Positions 53,964-63,694 are shown, counted from the stretch's first letter. The stretch is DNA of 64,000 bases from Dehalococcoidia bacterium (GCA_020847985.1 JADLBC010000025.1:24124-88123); one strand, 5' to 3'. Notes: generated by a model not told the origin, from the letters alone. Made by a program: numbers and translations.

Positions 53964-54008
53964 TGGTAGCGGGGGAGGGATTCGAACCCCCGACCTTCGG
54001 GTTATGAG
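53964..54008 (-). tRNA. 3'-terminal 45 nt of an initiator-type tRNA-Met(CAT); not a complete gene, putative att repeat of an integrated island
   Basis: The minus-strand reading is CUCAUAA-CCCGA-AGGUC-GGGGG-UUCGAAU-CCCUC-CCCCGCU-A-CCA. This gives an anticodon loop, the 3' anticodon stem, a variable loop, a full T arm, the 3' acceptor strand and CCA. The upstream 35 nt cannot form an anticodon stem or a D arm. Confidence 0.7.
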
Positions 54009-54122
54009 GGCATCTCGGGCTATCCCAAGCTCTCCGCCGCACTCCATTATGTCGCTTTTTGAACTTGGACTCCGGACGCAGCAAGCCATCCGTACCATCC
54101 GGTTCAGGCCCATCACAGCAGG

Positions 54123-54542: not shown

Positions 54543-55346
54543 CTAGAGGTCAGGATGCTCCGCGTACAGCATGAGCGGTTCGGTGACGTCTGAAATCGGC
54601 GGAAGAGACTCCCACGAGATCTCTTCTCCCCGCCACGGATGGAGTTGGGTCATTTCCACCAGGGGCCATGCCCAGGGGCCAGGCGGCGCATAGACCACAG
54701 CAGCAACGACCTCATCGATCCGGATGACGCAGCAATACGCGCGCTTTAAGAGTTCCTGCGCCATCTCACCCATGCCCGGTCTAGAGAAGCCGAACACATT
54801 GCCCTGAACCTGAATGAAATTGAGCCGATGAGGCGCATTCGGCATCTGGCCAAGGAAGACGCCCACGCCAGGCGGAACGCCCTGTTGCGCGGCGTGGCGG
54901 GCTTCGCGAGGGAACGCCAGCCGGTAATTCTGAGCGCTATTGATAACGATTGCCGTTTTCGCGAACCAGTGTGCAATCACTCTTCCGTCGGCTTCGCTGA
55001 TGGTTGGACATCGCGGAAACATAACCTTGCGGAACCGCCCTTCAAGGGCGTTCATCCATCCACCGTTGCACGCTTCGCAGATTTCGCCCGCAAGCAGCGC
55101 GGTGGTCGGGTGAGGACCTCTGGAATCGAGGATGTCGCCAAACACGCTCGTGTGCGTTGGCGTCCACGTTTCTTTCTCAGCCCCGAGTTCCCTCTGGAGC
55201 CAAAGCGGGAAGATGTGCTCCTTCGCCCGGTTGCCCGACTGCGCCGAACACATCCAACAGAAGGGCACGCCTTCGTTGATGCGAGATTCCAGCTTCGCGC
55301 CCTTACGCTTCAAGTACTTGTCGTAACCGCGTTCCTTATCGCTCAC
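54543..55346 (-). CDS. HNH_5-like endonuclease-family protein with a C-terminal uncharacterised domain
   Basis: CWMCSAQSGNRAKEHIFPLWL ... CEACNGGWMNALE has the CxxC...EH...CxxCN arrangement. The GTG start has GGGAG 8 nt upstream. Confidence 0.55.
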   Translation of the reverse strand: MSDKERGYDKYLKRKGAKLESRINEGVPFCWMCSAQSGNRAKEHIFPLWLQRELGAEKETWTPTHTSVFGDILDSRGPHPTTALLAGEICEACNGGWMNALEGRFRKVMFPRCPTISEADGRVIAHWFAKTAIVINSAQNYRLAFPREARHAAQQGVPPGVGVFLGQMPNAPHRLNFIQVQGNVFGFSRPGMGEMAQELLKRAYCCVIRIDEVVAAVVYAPPGPWAWPLVEMTQLHPWRGEEISWESLPPISDVTEPLMLYAEHPDL

Positions 55347-55461: not shown

Positions 55462-56346
55462 TCACGCATCCCAGCGCCGTGTCTCTGGATTCCACGTTCC
55501 TGCTAGCACTCTCCTCTGCAGAACGGGATCAACCACCGCTGCTGCAGCGGCATGCCCGGCGTTCAGGTCGGCGTCCAAACCCACCTCGCCAGCCAGTTGG
55601 CGGTACGGAACGCGCCACTCCGTGGGTGGCGGCGGGAGGTTCGAAGGCAGATCGTGGGTTCCGCGGCCGGCGAAGACCTCTTGGAGATCGACCAAAAGCG
55701 CCGCCGCGTCCAACGAGAACAACTGAGCGATCAGCGCCAGATCGACCAGGTCTTTGGGGCGACTGCTAACTCTGTCCCCTTCATAGCGGCGCGTGTAAGC
55801 GTGGAGCTTCTCAGCGACCTGACGAGTCAATGGAAGCACGGGGACCGGCACCGGTTCGATTCCGGCGAATGCCAGCAGGTCCGGCGTTGTGAGTGTCTCG
55901 GCCTGATTGATGAGACCGTCCCACTCCCCAACGTCCAAGAGAAATGTCTCGAAGAGCCGGCCGGCGAGCGAAGCTTCTACCCGGAACCGGTGGGCGCCGC
56001 CCATGCGGTCAGGGTCAGCAGTCGTCCGTTCCACCCGGAACGAGAAGAAGTCACCCAAGTCCTCGATCGTTACCTCGATCAGCCTCTCGAGCAGTTCATC
56101 CTCCTGAACCTGCCAGGCGAGATCGATGTCGCGAGTGGTGCGTGCCCGATCCGGCATGCGCAGTTGGAGAGCGAACCCGCCCTTGAGCGCCCATTGGCCC
56201 GGCGCGACGCGTAGGAGGCGAGCGAGCAACCGTTCGAATGCAACCTGCTTGCGCAGTCGCGCAAGGAGCGCACCTTCCCGGTGACTGCGATCCTTCAGCC
56301 GATCCTCAAGCGCCCGACGAAACGCGGCGGCAGTCTCGTACCTCAC
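55462..56346 (-). CDS. abiEii: AbiEii/AbiGii-family nucleotidyltransferase toxin (DUF1814)
   Basis: The N-terminus is FERLLARL...WALKGGFALQLR...RTTRDIDL. The start forms a GTGA overlap with the upstream abiEi stop. Confidence 0.85.
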   Translation of the reverse strand: MRYETAAAFRRALEDRLKDRSHREGALLARLRKQVAFERLLARLLRVAPGQWALKGGFALQLRMPDRARTTRDIDLAWQVQEDELLERLIEVTIEDLGDFFSFRVERTTADPDRMGGAHRFRVEASLAGRLFETFLLDVGEWDGLINQAETLTTPDLLAFAGIEPVPVPVLPLTRQVAEKLHAYTRRYEGDRVSSRPKDLVDLALIAQLFSLDAAALLVDLQEVFAGRGTHDLPSNLPPPPTEWRVPYRQLAGEVGLDADLNAGHAAAAAVVDPVLQRRVLAGTWNPETRRWDA

Positions 56347-56945
56347 GCAGGCACTCGCCCGACAGCGCTTTCAATGATTCGGCGAGTACGGGCGGAGCGG
56401 CCTTTCACCATCTCCCGGAGCCGACGAGGTGTCGTCAGACCGCGGTCCACGGCCTGCCGAACAGCAAGCTCTATTTGCTCAGGCGGAGAACCATCTTCCA
56501 GAGCATCGACGAGCGTTCGCTCGGGGCTGGTCACCGGCACGCCGTCAATGGTCCGGAGATCTTCCGTCCCGAGTTGCCCTTCGATTGTGTGTATTCGCAC
56601 GCCCGAACGCGGACGCACGCCACGCTTAGCCCGTGGGATGGAGACGTGAACCGCGGACGGGATCAGGTCGGTGAGTTCGTAGAGCTCGAGCGCGCTCTCG
56701 TGGGAGACAACGGCCCCGGTGGCCTTGAGCGGCAGCCATGCCGCCACAACGTGTTCGTGGGGACTGGAGGGAAAGTGTCTTAGGCGATACAGGCCTCGTC
56801 GGACTCGCTCAAACCGTCCTCCGGGGCGGGCGTGGTAGCGGAGCGTCGTCCGGTCGATGCCCGCATACTCCGCTTGGCCCGCGGTGAAGTAGCCTGCCTG
56901 CTGCTCGGCAATCTCGTAGAGCTGGTCATGCGCCGTGTCCGACAT
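56343..56945 (-). CDS. abiEi: AbiEi-family antitoxin/transcriptional regulator
   Basis: A winged-helix N-domain (GYFTAGQAEYAGIDRTTLRYHARPGGRFERVRRGLYRL) is followed by HESALELY. The ATG at 56945 was checked. Confidence 0.85.
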   Translation of the reverse strand: MSDTAHDQLYEIAEQQAGYFTAGQAEYAGIDRTTLRYHARPGGRFERVRRGLYRLRHFPSSPHEHVVAAWLPLKATGAVVSHESALELYELTDLIPSAVHVSIPRAKRGVRPRSGVRIHTIEGQLGTEDLRTIDGVPVTSPERTLVDALEDGSPPEQIELAVRQAVDRGLTTPRRLREMVKGRSARTRRIIESAVGRVPA

Positions 56946-56954
56946 ACGGGGCAC

Positions 56955-56998
56955 ATGATAGCCCAAACGTCGGACCACTGGGCCTCTCGGGCTAGCAT
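56955..56998. promoter_or_regulatory. imperfect inverted repeat ATGATAGCCC-N24-GGGCTAGCAT just upstream of abiEi (candidate AbiEi operator/promoter)
   Basis: The arms at 56955-56964 and 56989-56998 are complementary at 9 of 10 positions. A TATCAT hexamer on the minus strand lies 12 nt upstream of the abiEi ATG. Confidence 0.35.
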
Positions 56999-57168: not shown

Positions 57169-57489
57169 TCAACTTCCATGCTGCCATCGGAACTGCAGGT
57201 TCAGCTCATCCCCGGGCAGCGTCGCGATCGCCGTGAGAGGGACGAGAACACGGCCGCCCACGCGCACCACTCGAAGGTCGCCGCGCGCAATGGCGTTCCG
57301 AACTGCGGTGTGGCCCACGCCGAGCATCTGAGCTACCTCGGGCACCGAGTACGCCCTCCGTTGGAGGGGCGGCAACGTTCGGAGGCGATCTACGGTCCCG
57401 TTGGCGACACTTTCTGAGAGGTCGTCCCAGAACTGCGCATCACTCCGAATCTCTCGAGCAGTGAGCCGCGCGAAGTCTCTAACGTTCAT
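57169..57489 (-). CDS. excisionase-family (MerR-like) helix-turn-helix DNA-binding protein
   Basis: YSVPEVAQMLGVGHTAVRNAIARGDLRVVRVGGRVLV is present. GGAGG lies 5 nt upstream of the ATG at 57489. Confidence 0.7.
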   Translation of the reverse strand: MNVRDFARLTAREIRSDAQFWDDLSESVANGTVDRLRTLPPLQRRAYSVPEVAQMLGVGHTAVRNAIARGDLRVVRVGGRVLVPLTAIATLPGDELNLQFRWQHGS

Positions 57490-57530
57490 CTTGTCCTCCA
57501 CCTAGGCACTGCCGGGCCGACAAGCGGCCC

Positions 57531-58091
57531 CTACGGTTGCTCCTCAGGCGTTGAATCGGCGCACTCGCTCCACCAGTTGAAAAGTGGATGGTCGCGCGGC
57601 GGCCGGTAGCGGCTCCGCGTTTCAATGGACCTCAAGACCGCGCTGAGCCTGGGCAGCGCGATTTGCCCGACACGTTGCCACGCGTGAAGTAGTTCCGGCG
57701 TCGACGAGCGTGCGACCGACCGTTCACTGGCGATCCGGCGAGCTTTTCGGTCGTCGGTGGCGACAGCGAGCTGCCGAACCTCCGCAATCGCGATCGCCTC
57801 GGCCTCCCCGTCGTCGACGAGCGCCGCGAGGTCGACGACGAGATCAAGTTCTGTAGCATCAACCGCTGTGACGGCGACGAGGCCTGCAGCCCCGAGCGGA
57901 GAGAGGTCGATGGCTTGGCGTTCGCTCCCTCGCTCAGCGACCTCGATGTAAATGGCCTCGTCGGCGACGGCCGGCGGCACGACGAGCGTCAGCAGCAGAG
58001 TCGACAAAATCTCCTCCGCACAGCCCGAGGCCATGAGATTCATCAGGACATCGGCGTCCGCTACGAGTTCCGTTGGGTCATGGCCGAGTGC
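57531..58091 (-). CDS. PIN-domain (COG2405-like) putative nuclease
   Basis: VADADVLMNL ... VADEA ... DDGEAEAIAIAEVRQLAVATDDRKARRIA matches the acidic PIN pattern. The start is uncertain: TTG 58091 overlaps the upstream stop by 14 nt, and the alternative is the track-ORF start at 58172. Confidence 0.55.
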   Translation of the reverse strand, partial: ALGHDPTELVADADVLMNLMASGCAEEILSTLLLTLVVPPAVADEAIYIEVAERGSERQAIDLSPLGAAGLVAVTAVDATELDLVVDLAALVDDGEAEAIAIAEVRQLAVATDDRKARRIASERSVARSSTPELLHAWQRVGQIALPRLSAVLRSIETRSRYRPPRDHPLFNWWSECADSTPEEQP

Positions 58092-59292
58092 CAACGTGCA
58101 TCGACTCCGACAACGGCGGATGAGTCCCGCTTCCGTCTTGGACGTCTCGGCCCGTGCTCGCCATCCTGTCAACGAGCTCTCGCACCGTCAGTCGGTCTTC
58201 ACCGAGCAGCTCGGCCAGCTCGCGCTCGGTGAGAAGCGCGCGGTCGAACGCTTCGAGCGCAAGAAAGACAAACCGCCTGGGGAACTTCAAAGTGTCCGCT
58301 GGCGGAGCCTCGACACCCAGCAGCCGGCTGGCGGCCTGAATGTTCGCTCCCGAGTGAGTTAGCGCGTCCCAGGTGCCGCTCGAGACAACCCGGAGGCCCT
58401 CCAAGCGCAGCACCAGTGCTTGGAACGAAACCTCGTACTCGTCGGCAATCAGCAGCAGATCCGCCACAGTCACTTGGCGATCGGCGCTTTCCAATTCGCG
58501 AATCCTGCGCTGTAGACCAGCGCTTGGCATCAGGAACGCCGCCGCGAATTGATCCGCGAATCGCTCGTGCTCCGGAATCCGCTGGTATCCAGAAATCCGA
58601 GTGACCTCAGGACGATCCAATCGAGTCAAGAAATGGCCGAACTCGTGTGCAAGCGACCAGCGCTGGCGAACGGCAGGGTGATTCGCATTGATTGCCACGC
58701 ACGGCCCAGCTTCATGCGAGACACCGTAAAGCGCAGCTACACCACCCGGCAGTGGAATGCTGAAGATGCGGAGCCCACCCTCACGTTCGAGGAGTTCCCG
58801 CAGCTTCAGGACAGGGCCGTCACCGGCCGCGAGGCGACGCCGTTCGGCATCTGCAACCATCTCCGCATCCTGCTCTAGCCGCGCCGCTTCATAGCGATAA
58901 TAGGGAACGGCCCCCGGCCGGAGCGGGCTGTCGAGCATCTTCTCCAATCGGAGATAGCTTGCGACCAGCGTCTCAAGGGACGCGACTGCTTGCTCGAGTT
59001 CGGTTCGTTCGGCCAGAGGAGCGTCCGCGGGAAGTCGAAACTGGGCCTGGAGCGAGATAGGTGGCATGGGCTCACGCACGAGCTCCGAAATGCGGCTTCC
59101 GTAGGCTTTCGCGAGGTTCACAAGCAACGCCGAATCGACGCGGCGCTGCCCGGCTTCGATGGCAGCGACCGTCGGTCTCGATACGCCCAGCACCTCCGCG
59201 ATATCTGCCTGCGTTCGCCTATGCAGCTTCCTCAGCGTCTGGAGCCTGCGTCCCAGCTCCGCCTGATCGAATCTGGCCTCTTGCTCGCTCAT
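58078..59292 (-). CDS. fused XRE-type HTH plus ImmA/IrrE-family (COG2856) zinc metallopeptidase
   Basis: The HTH is RRTQADIAEVLGVSRPTVAAIEAGQRR and the metallopeptidase motif is HEFGH. The ATG at 59292 lies 1 nt after the QueC-like stop, with an alternative GTG at 59301. Confidence 0.85.
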   Translation of the reverse strand: MSEQEARFDQAELGRRLQTLRKLHRRTQADIAEVLGVSRPTVAAIEAGQRRVDSALLVNLAKAYGSRISELVREPMPPISLQAQFRLPADAPLAERTELEQAVASLETLVASYLRLEKMLDSPLRPGAVPYYRYEAARLEQDAEMVADAERRRLAAGDGPVLKLRELLEREGGLRIFSIPLPGGVAALYGVSHEAGPCVAINANHPAVRQRWSLAHEFGHFLTRLDRPEVTRISGYQRIPEHERFADQFAAAFLMPSAGLQRRIRELESADRQVTVADLLLIADEYEVSFQALVLRLEGLRVVSSGTWDALTHSGANIQAASRLLGVEAPPADTLKFPRRFVFLALEAFDRALLTERELAELLGEDRLTVRELVDRMASTGRDVQDGSGTHPPLSESMHVGTRP

Positions 59293-59293
59293 C

Positions 59294-60538
59294 TCATCCA
59301 CTCCACCCGAGCCGGCGGGCGAGTTCGCGGTCCGCCGCGATCAAGCTGGCCCACTCCAAACCGTAGCGCCGCAGTACGGCCAGCCGCTCGGCTGCTTCCA
59401 ACGATGGCGGCGAGCCTATGCCGAGTCCGATTTCCGGCCACTTAGCCGTCACTGTCTCGTAGTGCTCGGACGCAGCACGCGACACCAGTTCCCATGCCTG
59501 GAACGCCATCAGAAGCAGATGATCCGGTGGCGTTGCGCACTCGAACGCCGGTTGTCGATAATCGAGACGATCGAACTCCGCGAGACCCGCACTCCTGAGT
59601 GCCTGCTGACGCAAGATGCAAGACCCGCATCGCCCGCACTGTTTGGCCCGCTTATCGCGGAGCGGAAAACCGTCACAGGAGACCGTCCAGGCGATGAATG
59701 GCTTCAGGTCATCCGGGATCCCGGCGACTAGCTCCGCTTTGGTGTAGCCCCGGTACGGGAGGTCGATTGATACCGCGAAGCCCGCGGCGTCGAAGACTTG
59801 CTGAAGCTGTTGAACGACATGGGGATGGGTCGATTTGGTGGCCTGGGCACCCATCTGATGCTCAACGAGGCGCGGGTTGAGCGATCCGTAGCCATTCTCG
59901 AAGATCAGCACCCGGTGCGCCCCGGACCAACTCGCCACAGCAACGGCGACAGCGGAGTAAAGGAAACCGCGCGTTCGCTGGGAGCGCTCCACATCTGGCG
60001 CCTCGATGAGGTTCACTGGGACCGGCAGGTGCACCACACGATCGGGATACAGTTCACCCAGCGCCGATGCCAAATCCCGCTGGATCTTCCCAACCACGGT
60101 GCTGGAGCGCAGGGAGAGGAGTCCGATCCGCCCCGTCGAACGCCCCGCGAGCCAGCGCGCCGCTCCAGCGAACGAATCGAGTCCGCCGGAGAAGAGAGCT
60201 ACTTCATCGATCTGCTGCCCGCGAGCGAACGAGAGCCAAGCCTGCTGCTCTTCAGCCAAGGTCGGACGACCCTCGGCAAACTCCAGACGCCAATGGTCGT
60301 CGGTGAGCACCGCCAGGGCCTGCTCAAGCACTGGCCCGACATGCACCCAAAGGCGGCGAGAGGATATGGGCAAGCAGACATCCATGGGCCGAATCCACTC
60401 TCGCCCGCGGTGCCGCGAGCGGTCGGCCGCGTAGAGCTGCGCCGCGATGGAAACCAAATCGACCACTTGGGCGTCCGGCGCTTCGGACAGCGCCCGCGTC
60501 GCGGAGCCCAGTGAATAGCGTGGAGCAGTGACCTTCAC
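59294..60538 (-). CDS. QueC-like PP-loop ATPase (7-cyano-7-deazaguanine synthase family) with an extra ~100-aa N-terminal region; C-terminus ...RRLGWSG
   Basis: The PP-loop ALFSGGLDSFAG and the QueC-type Zn cluster SC-x13-CGRCGSCILR are present. The GTG at 60538 overlaps the stop of the upstream ORF (GTGA). The 123 upstream codons of the track ORF are Arg/Pro/Gly-rich and not protein-like. Confidence 0.8.
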   Translation of the reverse strand: MKVTAPRYSLGSATRALSEAPDAQVVDLVSIAAQLYAADRSRHRGREWIRPMDVCLPISSRRLWVHVGPVLEQALAVLTDDHWRLEFAEGRPTLAEEQQAWLSFARGQQIDEVALFSGGLDSFAGAARWLAGRSTGRIGLLSLRSSTVVGKIQRDLASALGELYPDRVVHLPVPVNLIEAPDVERSQRTRGFLYSAVAVAVASWSGAHRVLIFENGYGSLNPRLVEHQMGAQATKSTHPHVVQQLQQVFDAAGFAVSIDLPYRGYTKAELVAGIPDDLKPFIAWTVSCDGFPLRDKRAKQCGRCGSCILRQQALRSAGLAEFDRLDYRQPAFECATPPDHLLLMAFQAWELVSRAASEHYETVTAKWPEIGLGIGSPPSLEAAERLAVLRRYGLEWASLIAADRELARRLGWSG

Positions 60539-61089
60539 CGGTGGCTCTCTTGTGTAAGCGATACGCTTATCGCAGTTCCGAGCGTCTCCTCCGCCGACAA
60601 GCGCGTGCGACCTCGGGCTCTTGGCACCTTGCCCTGCATCTGTTGCGTGAAGAACCGATCTAGGCTGGGGACCAGTTGGGCGAGGAGCAGGTCCTCTTGG
60701 CGCCCCGTTGCTACGATGCCTCTCCGCCGTAGGCTGTCGGTGCGGGCGGGTCCAAGGATCCCCTCTGCTAGGCGTCGGCGCACATCGGTCCGCCACCGCT
60801 CGCGGTCTGCTGTCGCAGGAGGATCCTCCCGGAGCGACCGGGCGACCGCACGCTCCGCCGCTCGTACGGTCGCGTCCGACACACCCTGGCTGCCAAACAG
60901 TCGGCACGCGGGCGCCCAGTAGTGGCGCGGCAAGTTGGGGAGCACGTCTCGATCTGGCATCATTCTGACCATGTCAGATGTTCTTGGCATGATGGTGGAC
61001 TTCATCGCGAGCATTGTCAACAGCCCGGTCGAGCCAATGATGAGTGCTGCCGGCCGGCCATGCAGCCGCTGTGGCACAAACGAAGCCAT
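60535..61089 (-). CDS. hypothetical protein translationally coupled to the QueC-like gene
   Basis: This frame is protein-like (…VSDATVRAAERAVARSLRED…DLLLAQLVPSLDRFFTQQMQG…), whereas the overlapping QueC-frame extension is not. Its TGA overlaps the QueC-like GTG. The start is uncertain: ATG 61089 or internal ATGs at 60972, 60963 or 60960. I recognise no family. Confidence 0.45.
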   Translation of the reverse strand: MASFVPQRLHGRPAALIIGSTGLLTMLAMKSTIMPRTSDMVRMMPDRDVLPNLPRHYWAPACRLFGSQGVSDATVRAAERAVARSLREDPPATADRERWRTDVRRRLAEGILGPARTDSLRRRGIVATGRQEDLLLAQLVPSLDRFFTQQMQGKVPRARGRTRLSAEETLGTAISVSLTQESHR

Positions 61090-61246: not shown

Positions 61247-61263
61247 GCGACAGCGTCTGTCGC
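61247..61263. promoter_or_regulatory. 7-bp palindrome GCGACAG-CGT-CTGTCGC in the divergent control region
   Basis: Read directly. It sits 11 nt upstream of the putative -35 of the plus-strand operon. Confidence 0.35.
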
Positions 61264-61273
61264 ACATATGTTC

Positions 61274-61303
61274 TTGACTAGGTTGCAGCCGTGGCTCTAC
61301 CGT
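61274..61303 (+). promoter_or_regulatory. candidate sigma-70-type promoter TTGACT-N18-TACCGT for the micro-ORF/E2-E1/JAB operon
   Basis: The hexamers were read directly. They lie about 40 nt upstream of the micro-ORF ATG. Confidence 0.3.
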
Positions 61304-61344
61304 GAAATGAAATTAGCAACGCGCATAAGCGCTTGGAGGTTCAG

Positions 61345-61464
61345 ATGGCTGACACAGAACGGGAGCGGCCTGATCATCCGCCCCACCCTGAGCATCCTCC
61401 TCATCCGCCTCATCCGGAGCCGGGTCGCAAGCCGCCGCGGCCTCCTGGTCGCCCGTACGGATAG
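61345..61464 (+). CDS. 39-codon His/Pro-repeat micro-ORF ending in Gly (MADTERERPDHPPHPEHPPHPPHPEPGRKPPRPPGRPYG)
   Basis: GGAGG at 61335-61339 lies 5 nt before the ATG at 61345. Five tandem 9-nt units encode HP[PE] at 61375-61419. The TAG at 61462-61464 lies 2 nt before the GTG of the E2-E1 gene. It is below the ORF-track size cutoff. Confidence 0.4.
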   Translation: MADTERERPDHPPHPEHPPHPPHPEPGRKPPRPPGRPYG

Positions 61465-61466
61465 CT

Positions 61467-63212
61467 GTGCGCACGCCGTGGTTCGAGCGCGACGCGTCGC
61501 TCCTCGACCGAGAACTCACCGCCATTAGTAATGCGGGGTTCGAGTTCGCCCTGGAAGCTGCGCCGCGAGCCCTGGGCTTCATCGTTCTGAGGGGCAGGCT
61601 CCATGTTGGCTCAGAGCGGTTCGAGTCAGAGCTGCTGTACCCGGCGTCGTTCCCGTTCGGACGGCCAGAAGTCCGCGTGAACCTGAGACTTCCGCGGCAC
61701 TCATCGCCCTACGATCGAGTTCTGTGCCTCTGGCCGGGTGCGGCTGAAGACTGGGACTGGAACGAGAACGAAGGTCAGCAAGGCGCCTACACACTTGAGC
61801 GTGCCGTGGCGCTGCTCAGCATTCGAGGTGACGTAGACGAACTCCGCCGCCAGTCGGAGCGAAGCCCAGACCGCCAAAGCCGCTACTTGTTCGCGCCCGA
61901 CTCGGGGGCGCTCCTGATCCCGGCCGCACTTGATGGAGATGTGCCCTCAGACTCGTGGGGCCGGGCCGAGATAACCATGCTCGGCGCCAACACGGCCCGA
62001 ATTGGCGTGCTCACACGACTTGAGATCTTCGCGCGCGACGGTTCGACCTTGGGGGATCGTACGGCCGAGCCGGAAATCGCGGCAGCCCTAGTCCGGCCAG
62101 ATGCCCTGAAAGTCAGCGCCCGATGGGTGAAGCTGAAGCGCTATCCGCCTTTCAAGAACACGCGCGACGAATTCGAATCGCATTTTCCAGATTGGGTCAA
62201 CCAGCAGCTCCCGGCGACCGGCAAGGTCGCCCTCTCAGCCAATGCCCAAATCCGGATGCTCGGGGCAGCATTCCCGGAGGAGTGGCAGTGGAGTAAAGAG
62301 TCCGACGAGCTCGAATTCCGCGACGAGTGGGTGTTCGTCCTCGAATCGAGACAACCTGGAGGGCTGAGGAGGCATACCTACCGGCCGTTTCGCCTGGGGA
62401 AGGAGCACACGTTCGCGCGCAACCCTTCGCTGGCCGCACTGGACTCCAAGCGGGTAACGGTCGTGGGCCTTGGAGCACTCGGGTCGCCGATTGCACTCGG
62501 ACTAGCCCGTGCTGGCGTCGGGGCTCTCGTGCTGTTGGACCACGACATCGTCGAAACGGGAAATGCGCAGCGCGGTGCCTTCGATATCCTCGCTGCTGGG
62601 ACGCTCAAAACCGAGGAGATGAGGCGCCGGATCTTGTCGGTCAACCCGTACGCGCAGATTTCGATCGTCAACGGGCCTTGGGGTGGCATCCACACCGATG
62701 GATCTACGGTGGAAGACCTCGATGAGGTGTGGAAGATCGTGAGTTCGAGCGACCTCATCGTCGCTGCCGTTGCGAGCTACGAAACATCGCTAGATTTGCA
62801 GATGGTCGCGATTGAGCAGCGGATCCCACTTCTCTACACCGATGTAGTGCAGGGAGCATGGGGAGGGCGAGCGTTCTTGTATCGTCCAGGCCTGACAGGC
62901 TGTCTCGGTTGCCTCTACGCGCTACTGGCGACCACCCCGGAAATGTCTCCTGTCGCTAGCCCGGAGCCCGAGGTCCTGCCGGCGAACTGCGTTGCGCCGA
63001 CCTTCACCGGGAGCGGATTCGACATTGAGTCGGTGGCGACCATCGCCGTGAGACTCGCCGTCCAGGCGCTAGTCGCGCGCGACGACGGCTACCCCGCCGA
63101 GACCGCGAACTACGTCGTGTACCAGGCTGTCGGCACGCCAGACGCACCTGAGATCAGGAACTGGTCCGTCGTGCCCCGCCCTGAATGCGCCGTGTGTGCT
63201 GCCCACCCATGA
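61467..63212 (+). CDS. Cap2-like fusion protein: N-terminal E2 (UBC-like) domain plus C-terminal E1 (ThiF/MoeB-type adenylation) domain
   Basis: The E2 core is LYPASFPFGRPEVRV...HSSPYDRVLC(87)LW...W...LERAVALLS. The E1 part has RVTVVGLGALGSPIALGLARAG, LLDHD and NAQR. It also has CxxC pairs at 479/482 and 574/577, plus Cys508. Confidence 0.85.
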   Translation: MRTPWFERDASLLDRELTAISNAGFEFALEAAPRALGFIVLRGRLHVGSERFESELLYPASFPFGRPEVRVNLRLPRHSSPYDRVLCLWPGAAEDWDWNENEGQQGAYTLERAVALLSIRGDVDELRRQSERSPDRQSRYLFAPDSGALLIPAALDGDVPSDSWGRAEITMLGANTARIGVLTRLEIFARDGSTLGDRTAEPEIAAALVRPDALKVSARWVKLKRYPPFKNTRDEFESHFPDWVNQQLPATGKVALSANAQIRMLGAAFPEEWQWSKESDELEFRDEWVFVLESRQPGGLRRHTYRPFRLGKEHTFARNPSLAALDSKRVTVVGLGALGSPIALGLARAGVGALVLLDHDIVETGNAQRGAFDILAAGTLKTEEMRRRILSVNPYAQISIVNGPWGGIHTDGSTVEDLDEVWKIVSSSDLIVAAVASYETSLDLQMVAIEQRIPLLYTDVVQGAWGGRAFLYRPGLTGCLGCLYALLATTPEMSPVASPEPEVLPANCVAPTFTGSGFDIESVATIAVRLAVQALVARDDGYPAETANYVVYQAVGTPDAPEIRNWSVVPRPECAVCAAHP

Positions 63213-63694
63213 GCCGCCTATTCGTCGTCCGGGCCGTTGTTGAAGCCATCGAGGAGGAAGCAAAGCGCTCCAGATGGACCGAGACTGGCGGCGTGCTCGT
63301 CGGTTATTGGTCCTCGGACGATGACTTGGTCGTGGTTGACGCGGTGGTGGCTTCCCGTCGTTCGCGGCGATCGCCTAGCGGCTTCGAGTCCTCTGTTCCC
63401 GATGACTGGGCAACGATTGAGGAAGTGGTGAGGGCAAGCTCGGGCGCGTTCACTTACATAGGCGACTGGCACAGCCATCCCTTGGGCGGGTGCCGCCCGA
63501 GTCGTCGGGATTTCGAAACGACGGTGAAGGTCTCTCGGTCACGCGACGCGGACACCCAGAGGCCGTTGCTTTGGATAGCGGCGCGCCAACGCCCGCTCGT
63601 CGGAGATATCGAACACGGGGCATTCTTGCTCCTCGGGCCCGACAAGCTCACTCAGATGCGCATCAGGACGTTGGACTCCGTGCCCGGCGCGTAG
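63209..63694 (+). CDS. Cap3-like JAB/JAMM (MPN+) metalloisopeptidase
   Basis: ETGGVLVG ... GDWHSHPLGGCRPSRRD gives the E, HxH, S and D JAMM motif. The start forms an ATGA overlap with the E2-E1 stop. Confidence 0.85.
   Translation: MSRLFVVRAVVEAIEEEAKRSRWTETGGVLVGYWSSDDDLVVVDAVVASRRSRRSPSGFESSVPDDWATIEEVVRASSGAFTYIGDWHSHPLGGCRPSRRDFETTVKVSRSRDADTQRPLLWIAARQRPLVGDIEHGAFLLLGPDKLTQMRIRTLDSVPGA

Follow-up and report, generated by a model that had tools for sequence, protein, structure and literature searches.

Gene organization of the locus

In the 64,000-nucleotide stretch of DNA from a Dehalococcoidia bacterium analysed here (GCA_020847985.1 JADLBC010000025.1:24124-88123, hereafter the window), positions 61345-63694 hold three tightly packed genes on the plus strand: a micro-open reading frame (micro-ORF) encoding a proline-rich peptide, a fusion of a ubiquitin-conjugating (E2) domain, a linker and a ubiquitin-activating (E1) domain, and a JAMM/JAB peptidase. 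The micro-ORF (61345..61464) encodes 39 residues (MADTERERPDHPPHPEHPPHPPHPEPGRKPPRPPGRPYG*), the proposed conjugated tag and, as such, the putative substrate of the E1 domain. A Shine-Dalgarno sequence (GGAGG, 61335-61339) lies 6 nucleotides (nt) before its ATG, and its stop codon is placed 2 nt before the GTG start of the Cap2-like E2-linker-E1 gene (61467..63212, 581 residues), whose own stop overlaps the ATG of the Cap3-like JAMM/JAB gene (63209..63694, 161 residues) as ATGA. The module is preceded by a conserved region (61254..61344, plus strand), at the start of which homology with a 91%-identical locus (L002) begins, the two loci diverging further upstream; a reading of this region suggests a putative promoter on the same strand (TTGACT at 61274-61279 and TACCGT at 61298-61303). 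Searches of the module region with Rfam and ARAGORN gave no match. The window ends only 306 nt past the JAB gene, and the continuation was therefore taken from a near-identical contig (L001) and from L002.

The E2-E1 fusion enzyme and the JAB peptidase

The 581-residue protein is composed of an E2 domain (residues ~1-130, with the codon of C87 at 61725-61727), a linker domain (~131-310) and a ThiF-type E1 domain (~311-581, with the codon of C508 at 62988-62990) that includes a Zn site formed by C479, C482, C574 and C577. The motifs are YPASFPFGRPEV...RHSSPYDRVLC87LWP, GLGALGS (334-340), LLDHD (356-360), C479xxC482, C574xxC577 and C508. The Pfam ThiF family matches residues 320-535 at an E of 1.4e-27, and PADLOC "E1-E2" models for CBASS (the antiphage signalling system based on cyclic oligonucleotides) match the C-terminal half only (best E 1.7e-32). 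Pfam gives no E2 call on the N-terminal half of the window protein; its Prok-E2_B family is matched by five of 13 aligned relatives. A profile search with the E2-E1 protein returned 490 representatives of 50%-identity clusters at E below 1e-30, and most of the best 150 matches extend in one stretch over nearly the full length (~residues 3-578). Across an alignment of 119 sequences, H78 and C87 (of the HxNP...LC motif), R369, K381 and C508 are invariant, and so are the residues of the ATP site. The window protein belongs to a clade marked by the motif C-x2-PTFTGxGFD.

An AlphaFold2 model computed on the same alignment has a predicted local distance difference test score (pLDDT) of 94.1 and a predicted template-modelling score (pTM) of 0.92. 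Compared with the PDB by Foldseek, this model is matched best by the Cap2 of Enterobacter cloacae in its CD-NTase complex (7TO3_A; E 5e-24), with a structural alignment that covers the full length at a template-modelling score of about 0.6 and 16% identity; few other PDB entries span the whole chain. The matches to the E1 domain, by structure and by sequence, include MccB and PaaA, and BubCD gives a weak, partial match. Because of the Prok-E2_B relatives, the invariant residues and the fold match to Cap2, the 581-residue protein is, as judged from sequence and model, a Cap2-type E2-linker-E1 enzyme that keeps both catalytic cysteines.

The 161-residue protein matches Prok-JAB (E 2.3e-11) and the PADLOC CBASS JAB model (2e-21), and contains the JAMM signature E...HSHx7SxxD. 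On this basis, the enzymes of the module look intact. A JAB gene was found by tblastn directly 3' of the E2-E1 gene in all 28 loci L001-L028, and one was called in this position in three of four loci picked later. In the fourth, the peptide-type E2-E1 locus L074 (3001-5433), no JAB gene is called downstream; since resolvase and transposase genes abut, this is probably a disrupted copy.

These results agree with an earlier sequence-only reading of the window, which had reported the E2-E1 ORF and its motifs, all of which are present at the residues that it gave, together with a 161-residue JAMM protein coupled to it by ATGA. The Cap2/Cap3-like architecture that it proposed is borne out by the full-length match to 7TO3 and by the CBASS JAB model, and its assignment of an N-terminal E2 domain holds in view of the Prok-E2_B relatives, the Cap2 fold and the invariance of H78, C87 and C508.

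The MccB and PaaA matches bring up a different function for the module, namely that it makes a modified peptide as in the microcin C (MccA/MccB) or pantocin (PaaA) pathways, with the E1 domain adenylating the ribosomal peptide and the outcome being either a peptide-nucleotide with bioactivity or a peptide that is cyclised. MccA/MccB indeed have such a layout, in which a very small precursor gene immediately precedes that of an E1-like enzyme. However, the invariant E2 histidine and cysteine and the cysteine in the E1 crossover loop point to a thioester relay, the full-length structural match is to Cap2 and not to MccB, the peptide ends in Gly and not in Asn, and a JAB isopeptidase is found at nearly every locus. 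In addition, neither an RRE nor a peptide-clamp domain is present, and the loci share no conserved gene for export or immunity. We therefore regard the production of a modified peptide as quite unlikely.

Conservation and coding evidence of the micro-ORF

The micro-ORF is kept upstream of the E2-E1 gene in L002, in relatives with 43% (L004) and 35% (L007) identity, and in more than 40 further loci, its carriers belonging to the Actinomycetota, Chloroflexota, Acidobacteriota, Bacillota and Proteobacteria. Collections of genomes and metagenomes were scanned and provided 66 further loci, and wherever the E2-E1 start is included, the gene is preceded by an ORF of 30-59 residues rich in Pro, His, Glu and Lys, with two kinds of exception (L027, and L018/L044; see below). 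The distance between the two genes is -7 to +18 nt in most loci, some of them overlapping. Among about 45 related loci inspected, a CD-NTase is found in one (L027) and a ThsB-type TIR protein in one system, represented by contigs L018 and L044, the upstream gene of the others being the micro-ORF alone. The micro-ORF was also present in all four representatives picked from the protein search without the use of any DNA pattern.

Several observations suggest that this is a real gene. Nearly all copies have a Shine-Dalgarno sequence and an ATG start. Under a strict definition (Pro-rich, Gly-ended and abutting the E2-E1 start), a micro-ORF was found in 33 of 38 distinct loci, compared with three of 4405 background ORFs from the same loci. 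Between the window and L002, the micro-ORF differs by six synonymous and two non-synonymous changes and by a 9-nt in-frame indel, an insertion in L002. For these reasons the micro-ORF looks translated, with a coding frame that appears to be under purifying selection, and by sequence comparison it is a conserved partner of the E2-E1/JAB pair. In the window, as in the layout that we propose to define peptide-type loci, a Pro-rich micro-ORF of no more than 60 residues ending in Rx[VYF]G, to which a few residues may be added, abuts an E2-E1 gene carrying C-x2-PTFTGxGFD, which is followed by the JAB gene. Gene callers mostly overlook the micro-ORF, and a profile search from the micropeptides against 5.8 billion proteins yielded two matches only, unnamed or annotated as "hypothetical".

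The micropeptides share the consensus core P-x-x-PP-[KRE]-PP-x(2-3)-[RK]-x-[VYF]-G, and their C-terminal motif can be written as PP[KR]PPxxRx[VYF]G, with a short extension in some copies. Conservation is highest at the very C-terminus, Rx[VYF]G, and the N-terminal two thirds are of low complexity and variable in length. The motifs PPG, PPP and PPGPP are abundant throughout, and the 39-residue peptide of the window is probably disordered. The L004 peptide reads MTNEREGG...RPPKPPDKPFGILTSA, and that of L007 ends in ...RPPKPPGRRFG. Nearly all micropeptides end in Gly, that of L009 ending in Ala, and many have one to five residues after the Gly (AC, GC, EC, S, CG, VR, or ILTSA in the case of L004). 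These extensions imply processing, and they would be expected if a precursor is matured by the JAB peptidase, as happens in other bacterial systems of ubiquitin-like proteins (Ubls) (PMC11601596). An 80-residue form in L076 (267-509), where a 24-residue extension that is not Pro-rich (FHGGSVIPDGTAESFASFEKRG) comes after ...PPKHRPVG, is a candidate pro-peptide for such processing.

Relationship to the tails of Cap2 substrates

Where an operon has full-length Cap2 and Cap3, its CD-NTase terminates with Gly or Ala (PMC10097602), and the extended, disordered tail of these CD-NTases occupies the adenylation site of Cap2 (10.1101/2022.03.31.486616). In addition, a ThsB with a tail has been described in Thoeris operons that carry Cap2/Cap3 (10.64898/2025.12.03.692087). 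The two kinds of exception found among our loci have such tails. L027 (4973-5992) encodes a SMODS CD-NTase of 339 residues with the tail ...PPRPREVG and has a SAVED/Mrr effector upstream, and L018 (5346-5987), like L044, encodes a ThsB-type TIR protein of 213 residues with the tail ...PPRRREVG. In a neighbour-joining tree, the E2-E1 proteins of L027 and L018/L044 nest within the peptide-type clade. In the micropeptides the penultimate residue follows the E2-E1 clade, being Tyr or Phe in the clade of the window and Val in others.

The micropeptide thus shares, in sequence terms, the Gly/Ala-ended disordered tail of Cap2 substrates. Because it obeys the Gly/Ala rule, and because the same tail is present on the CD-NTase of L027 and the TIR protein of L018/L044, it appears to be a free-standing version of the tail recognised by Cap2-type enzymes, and it is probably the substrate of the E1 domain, that is, the equivalent of ubiquitin. 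The nested position of the tailed loci hints at fusion or fission between a tail gene and sensor genes, and the tails of CBASS CD-NTases and of the TIR proteins of Thoeris with Cap2/Cap3 could have arisen by fusion of the peptide gene to an upstream sensor gene, or the reverse.

The same region of the module admits a regulatory reading, in which the micro-ORF encodes a cis-acting leader peptide; polyproline stalling, dependent on elongation factor P (EF-P) or on proline-tRNA, would act by translational coupling to determine how strongly E2-E1 and JAB are expressed, and the true substrate would be encoded elsewhere. This would account for the tight coupling or overlap between the micro-ORF stop and the E2-E1 start, for the abundance of PPG, PPP and PPGPP in all micropeptides and for the low complexity and variable length of their N-terminal two thirds. 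It fits poorly with the fact that conservation is strongest at the Rx[VYF]G end, which is the tail of the CD-NTase and TIR proteins at the sister loci, that the terminal residue follows the Gly/Ala rule of Cap2 substrates and that the Gly is kept while the extensions beyond it vary; furthermore, no alternative tailed substrate is conserved nearby or was found in the window. We consider a leader peptide in place of a substrate unlikely, and a leader role is possible as an additional layer on top of tagging.

Genomic context

Pfam and PADLOC detect no CD-NTase, CBASS effector or beta-grasp protein among the ORFs of 54-64 kb, and phmmer searches of the whole window with two CD-NTases, a ThsB-TIR, a TIR-SAVED and a metallo-beta-lactamase as queries retrieved nothing credible, the sole match of the metallo-beta-lactamase query being marginal and 47 kb away from the module. 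No effector of the SAVED, CapV, Cap4 or TIR type is matched by Pfam or PADLOC in the window region, L001 or L002, and no cyclase or effector is present in the DNA past the window end (about 8 kb, from the L001 and L002 contigs). All-against-all clustering of the neighbours across loci revealed no conserved gene besides those of the module itself, on account of which the module seems to stand alone.

The absence of a CD-NTase, an effector and a beta-grasp ORF from 54-64 kb had been noted in the sequence-only reading, and the Pfam and PADLOC searches agree with it, as do those with phmmer for CD-NTases and TIR proteins across the window. The suggestion made there of a partner other than a CD-NTase is strengthened by the micropeptide, found upstream in nearly all of the roughly 45 inspected loci, and the counter-argument that it had foreseen, that this copy is a deletion remnant of a CD-NTase operon, fails, as only L027 (CD-NTase) and L018/L044 (ThsB-TIR) differ. 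Its description of the neighbours, a Gly-ended micro-ORF and a QueC-like operon, has to be revised: the micro-ORF exists, but as a conserved partner and not a mere neighbour, and the QueC-like operon, in fact encoding a QatC homolog, is not conserved.

A module without an effector, whose peptide mimics a substrate tail, might also be explained if the peptide were a pseudo-substrate or regulator held in the E2-E1 active site, the enzymes serving a CBASS or Thoeris system elsewhere in the genome. Yet no CD-NTase or TIR protein was found in the 64 kb of the window, the module is mobile and occurs in varied contexts, which is a poor fit with dependence on a distant partner, and the residues after the Gly imply that the peptide is matured to expose a C-terminus that can react, making this explanation very unlikely.

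Among the genes that neighbour the module in the window, only one type recurs at other loci. This is a minus-strand gene (58078..59301) whose CapH/CapP- or RmrA-type product fuses an XRE-type helix-turn-helix (HTH) to an M78 (ImmA/IrrE) domain (Pfam HTH_3 and Peptidase_M78; PADLOC RmrA/capP). In about 10 of 36 distinct loci, XRE-HTH and/or M78 genes of CapH/CapP type are found upstream of the micro-ORF in divergent orientation, at up to about 700 nt, and some of them are fused, as in L029. In the window, the QatC-like pair lies between the HTH-M78 gene and the module, and the recovered part of L002 has no HTH-M78 gene; the protein is a possible regulator of the module, its membership being uncertain. 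For Bub operons, a CapH/CapP association of 31% has served as an argument that they act in immunity or stress (PMC11601596). At other loci the neighbours include type I restriction-modification genes, toxin-antitoxin pairs, integrases and transposases, and the defence-type neighbours found here and in L002 are AbiE, the QatC homolog and PDC-S19. From the recurrence of capH/capP/RmrA-type regulators and from these defence genes, the context of the module points to defence. A scan of viral contigs gave no relative of the module.

The QatC-like pair consists of the QatC homolog (59294-60538, minus strand; PADLOC QatC 5e-52, PDB QatC 9ZEE 5e-32) and of a 184-residue ORF (60535-61089, minus strand) that overlaps it as GTGA and occupies the position of QatB, with no detectable similarity to QatB. 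A longer, 537-residue reading of QatC was rejected, as the GC content by codon position marks its first 123 codons as non-coding and the 184-residue ORF as real. The ATPase QatA and the TatD nuclease QatD are missing from this operon, which lacks the full QatABCD set; together with the HTH-M78 gene, the two ORFs may form a reduced or variant Qat-like system. A functional link between this operon and the module was rejected, since it is not conserved in L002 or in any other locus; in L002 the gene upstream is an AbiEii fragment.

The presence of partial systems such as this QatC homolog without QatA or QatD, in what is a mosaic island, and the resemblance of the micropeptide to a CD-NTase or TIR tail are the arguments for seeing in the module a decayed type II CBASS or Thoeris operon, from which the sensor body and the effector were deleted and only the tail-coding 3' end was left, without a function. 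This is contradicted by the same three-gene layout in more than 40 loci of distant phyla with their own Shine-Dalgarno and ATG starts, by a coding frame under purifying selection and intact catalytic residues, by the hundreds of 50%-identity clusters of full-length E2-E1 proteins retrieved in the profile search, and by the sampled loci with upstream sequence, all of which have the peptide or a same-tailed protein before E2-E1. As the family is broad and intact, decay is excluded as a general explanation, and we consider it hardly credible.

The island contains further defence genes, all on the minus strand. A complete AbiEi (211 residues)/AbiEii (294 residues) pair, of the toxin-antitoxin or abortive-infection kind, is present at 55462-56978 (PADLOC 4e-64 and 1e-90), and a 213-residue PDC-S70-like protein (a PADLOC candidate) with a downstream 110-residue HTH_17 protein (excisionase/mad1-like) at 57169-58172 may be a small defence or toxin-antitoxin pair. 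At the island edge, a 267-residue minus-strand ORF (54543-55346), unmatched in Pfam and PADLOC, has Cys-rich, CxxC-like motifs. The module lies in a stretch of lower GC content (0.60-0.65, vs about 0.70) that starts near 54 kb. At about 53965-54010 (minus strand), the 3' half of a tRNA gene can be recognised by its CAT anticodon loop, T-arm and ...GCTACCA end, after which comes a terminator-like hairpin; a matching 5' half is missing, and neither ARAGORN nor Rfam calls the fragment. As it coincides with the fall in GC content from ~0.70 to ~0.61, this fragment probably marks the attachment (att) border of an integrated defence island.

Past the window end, in L001 (3191-5501, minus strand) and also in L002, a convergent set of genes encodes a 353-residue protein of no family, a 354-residue PDC-S19 protein (PADLOC, E 4e-150) and a 63-residue ORF, and in L002 these are followed by a helicase (similar to the C-terminal part of DpdE/ZorD) and a DUF6094 methyltransferase. 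The 353- and 354-residue genes were considered as partners of the module and rejected, the latter being the independent candidate defence gene PDC-S19, which only the 91%-identical relative L002 has in common with this locus.

Proposed function

We propose, with a probability of about 0.55 and on the strength of the sequence, fold and context evidence above, that the module is a self-contained three-gene peptide-conjugation system in which a bare peptide plays the role of ubiquitin. In such a system, the 39-residue Pro-rich micropeptide would be translated and stand in for ubiquitin, and in lineages with post-Gly residues the JAB peptidase would mature the precursor. The ThiF-type E1 domain would adenylate the C-terminal Gly of the micropeptide, which would then be carried as a thioester on C508 of the E1 and subsequently on C87 of the E2, before being joined to amino groups of target proteins. 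The JAB peptidase would also remove the tag, reversing the conjugation.

As to the outcome, Bil systems tag phage structural proteins, such as a tail protein. By analogy with this, and with Pup, one may speculate that a rigid polyproline rod placed on phage or host proteins would block their assembly or mark them. An inducible module that acts against phages or in the stress response is the probable nature of the system, conjugation as well as the antiphage role being what we infer from its genes and their context. The full proposal, of a conjugation system spread over many phyla that would use a ~40-residue polyproline modifier outside the beta-grasp fold, a Cap2-like E2-E1 and a JAB peptidase for stand-alone antiphage tagging, we hold at slightly less than even odds.

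Several points weigh against this proposal. A tag without enzymatic cargo or a conserved effector leaves the biological output unexplained, and PPG/PPP runs stall ribosomes, so that a cis-regulatory role of the micro-ORF is possible. The loci were partly collected with a clade-specific DNA pattern, so that the share of peptide-type systems among them holds for this sample only. In addition, the neighbour-joining tree of E2-E1 is without support values, and the link between the penultimate residue and the clade is confounded by phylogeny.

The Cap2/Cap3 machinery itself is already known, and what appears to be new is its partnership with a peptide; no description of a peptide-only Cap2/Cap3 system was found in the full-text literature searched, a search that leaves out most subscription papers. 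If the proposal is correct, E1/E2 chemistry needs no ubiquitin fold and a bare tail suffices as a transferable tag, which bears on the evolution of ubiquitin-like signalling and on what Cap2 really recognises. It would also add a three-gene system that is compact and widespread yet still lacks an annotation, nearly every sampled locus being of the peptide type, which annotation pipelines miss because its key gene is a micro-ORF of 30-59 codons. Being minimal and open to genetics, such a system would serve as a model in which the physiological targets of Cap2-type conjugation could be sought, and a small programmable peptide-ligation tool could follow.

Comparison with known systems

Among the closest known systems is the Cap2/Cap3 pair of type II CBASS, with which the module shares the E2-linker-E1 architecture and fold, the pair of catalytic cysteines, the adjacent JAB gene and a disordered tail ended by Gly or Ala, which serves for substrate recognition in CBASS and here is the micropeptide. 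The difference is that the module has no CD-NTase or cyclic-nucleotide effector, and that its presumed substrate is a tail-only peptide of 30-59 residues. In the case of Thoeris with Cap2/Cap3, L018/L044 share with the peptide-type loci both the E2-E1 clade and the Pro-rich ...REVG tail, but there the tail is part of a TIR enzyme accompanied by an effector, whereas here it is free and there is no TIR protein in the window.

For the superfamily of operons with E2+E1 and JAB, Iyer, Burroughs and Aravind (2006) distinguished classes 6a-6e, class 6b having since become type II CBASS. The partners in these classes are a metallo-beta-lactamase (6a), a nucleotidyltransferase (6b), a metal-binding protein (6c) and beta-grasp Ubls (6d and 6e), and the module, although of the same superfamily, has a micropeptide partner that occurs in none of the five. 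Class 6a is a triple fusion of E2, E1 and JAB beside a metallo-beta-lactamase, whereas here JAB is separate and no metallo-beta-lactamase gene is adjacent. One of the more distant loci retrieved, L006 (8793-12411, 26% identity), resembles class 6a, having a gene of the metallo-beta-lactamase fold directly upstream of E2-E1, a separate JAB gene and no micropeptide.

The Bil and Bub systems are similar in their E1/E2 chemistry, combined with JAB or another peptidase, and in a small Gly-ended modifier that is processed from precursors, and Bub operons share the frequent association with CapH/CapP (PMC11601596). Their modifiers, however, are beta-grasp Ubls, and their E1 and E2 are separate or differently fused; compared with Bil, the window has no beta-grasp ORF, and the E2 is fused to an E1 with a single adenylation domain. 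Bub is further set apart by oxyester intermediates, by the DUF6527 protease BubE and by an E1 that lacks the catalytic cysteine, whereas C508 of the module is invariant and no DUF6527 protein is found among the module neighbours.

In microcin C biosynthesis, as here, a tiny peptide gene immediately precedes the gene of an E1-like adenylating enzyme, whose site of action is the peptide C-terminus. MccB differs from the module enzyme in having a peptide-clamp N-terminal domain, where the module has an E2, and no catalytic-cysteine relay, and the microcin C peptide has a terminal Asn, is turned into a peptidyl-nucleotide antibiotic and is accompanied by export and immunity genes, whereas the module peptide is Gly-ended and no transporter is conserved.

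Lastly, the pupylation system of actinobacteria (Pup with PafA/Dop) offers a parallel of another kind. Pup is joined through the side chain of its C-terminal Glu by a glutamine-synthetase-like ligase, without an E1/E2 thioester relay, and it has no sequence similarity to the micropeptide. The resemblance is functional only, and consists of a short, disordered, non-beta-grasp covalent tag served by a dedicated de-tagging enzyme, the same combination that the micropeptide and the JAB peptidase would represent if the module works as proposed.

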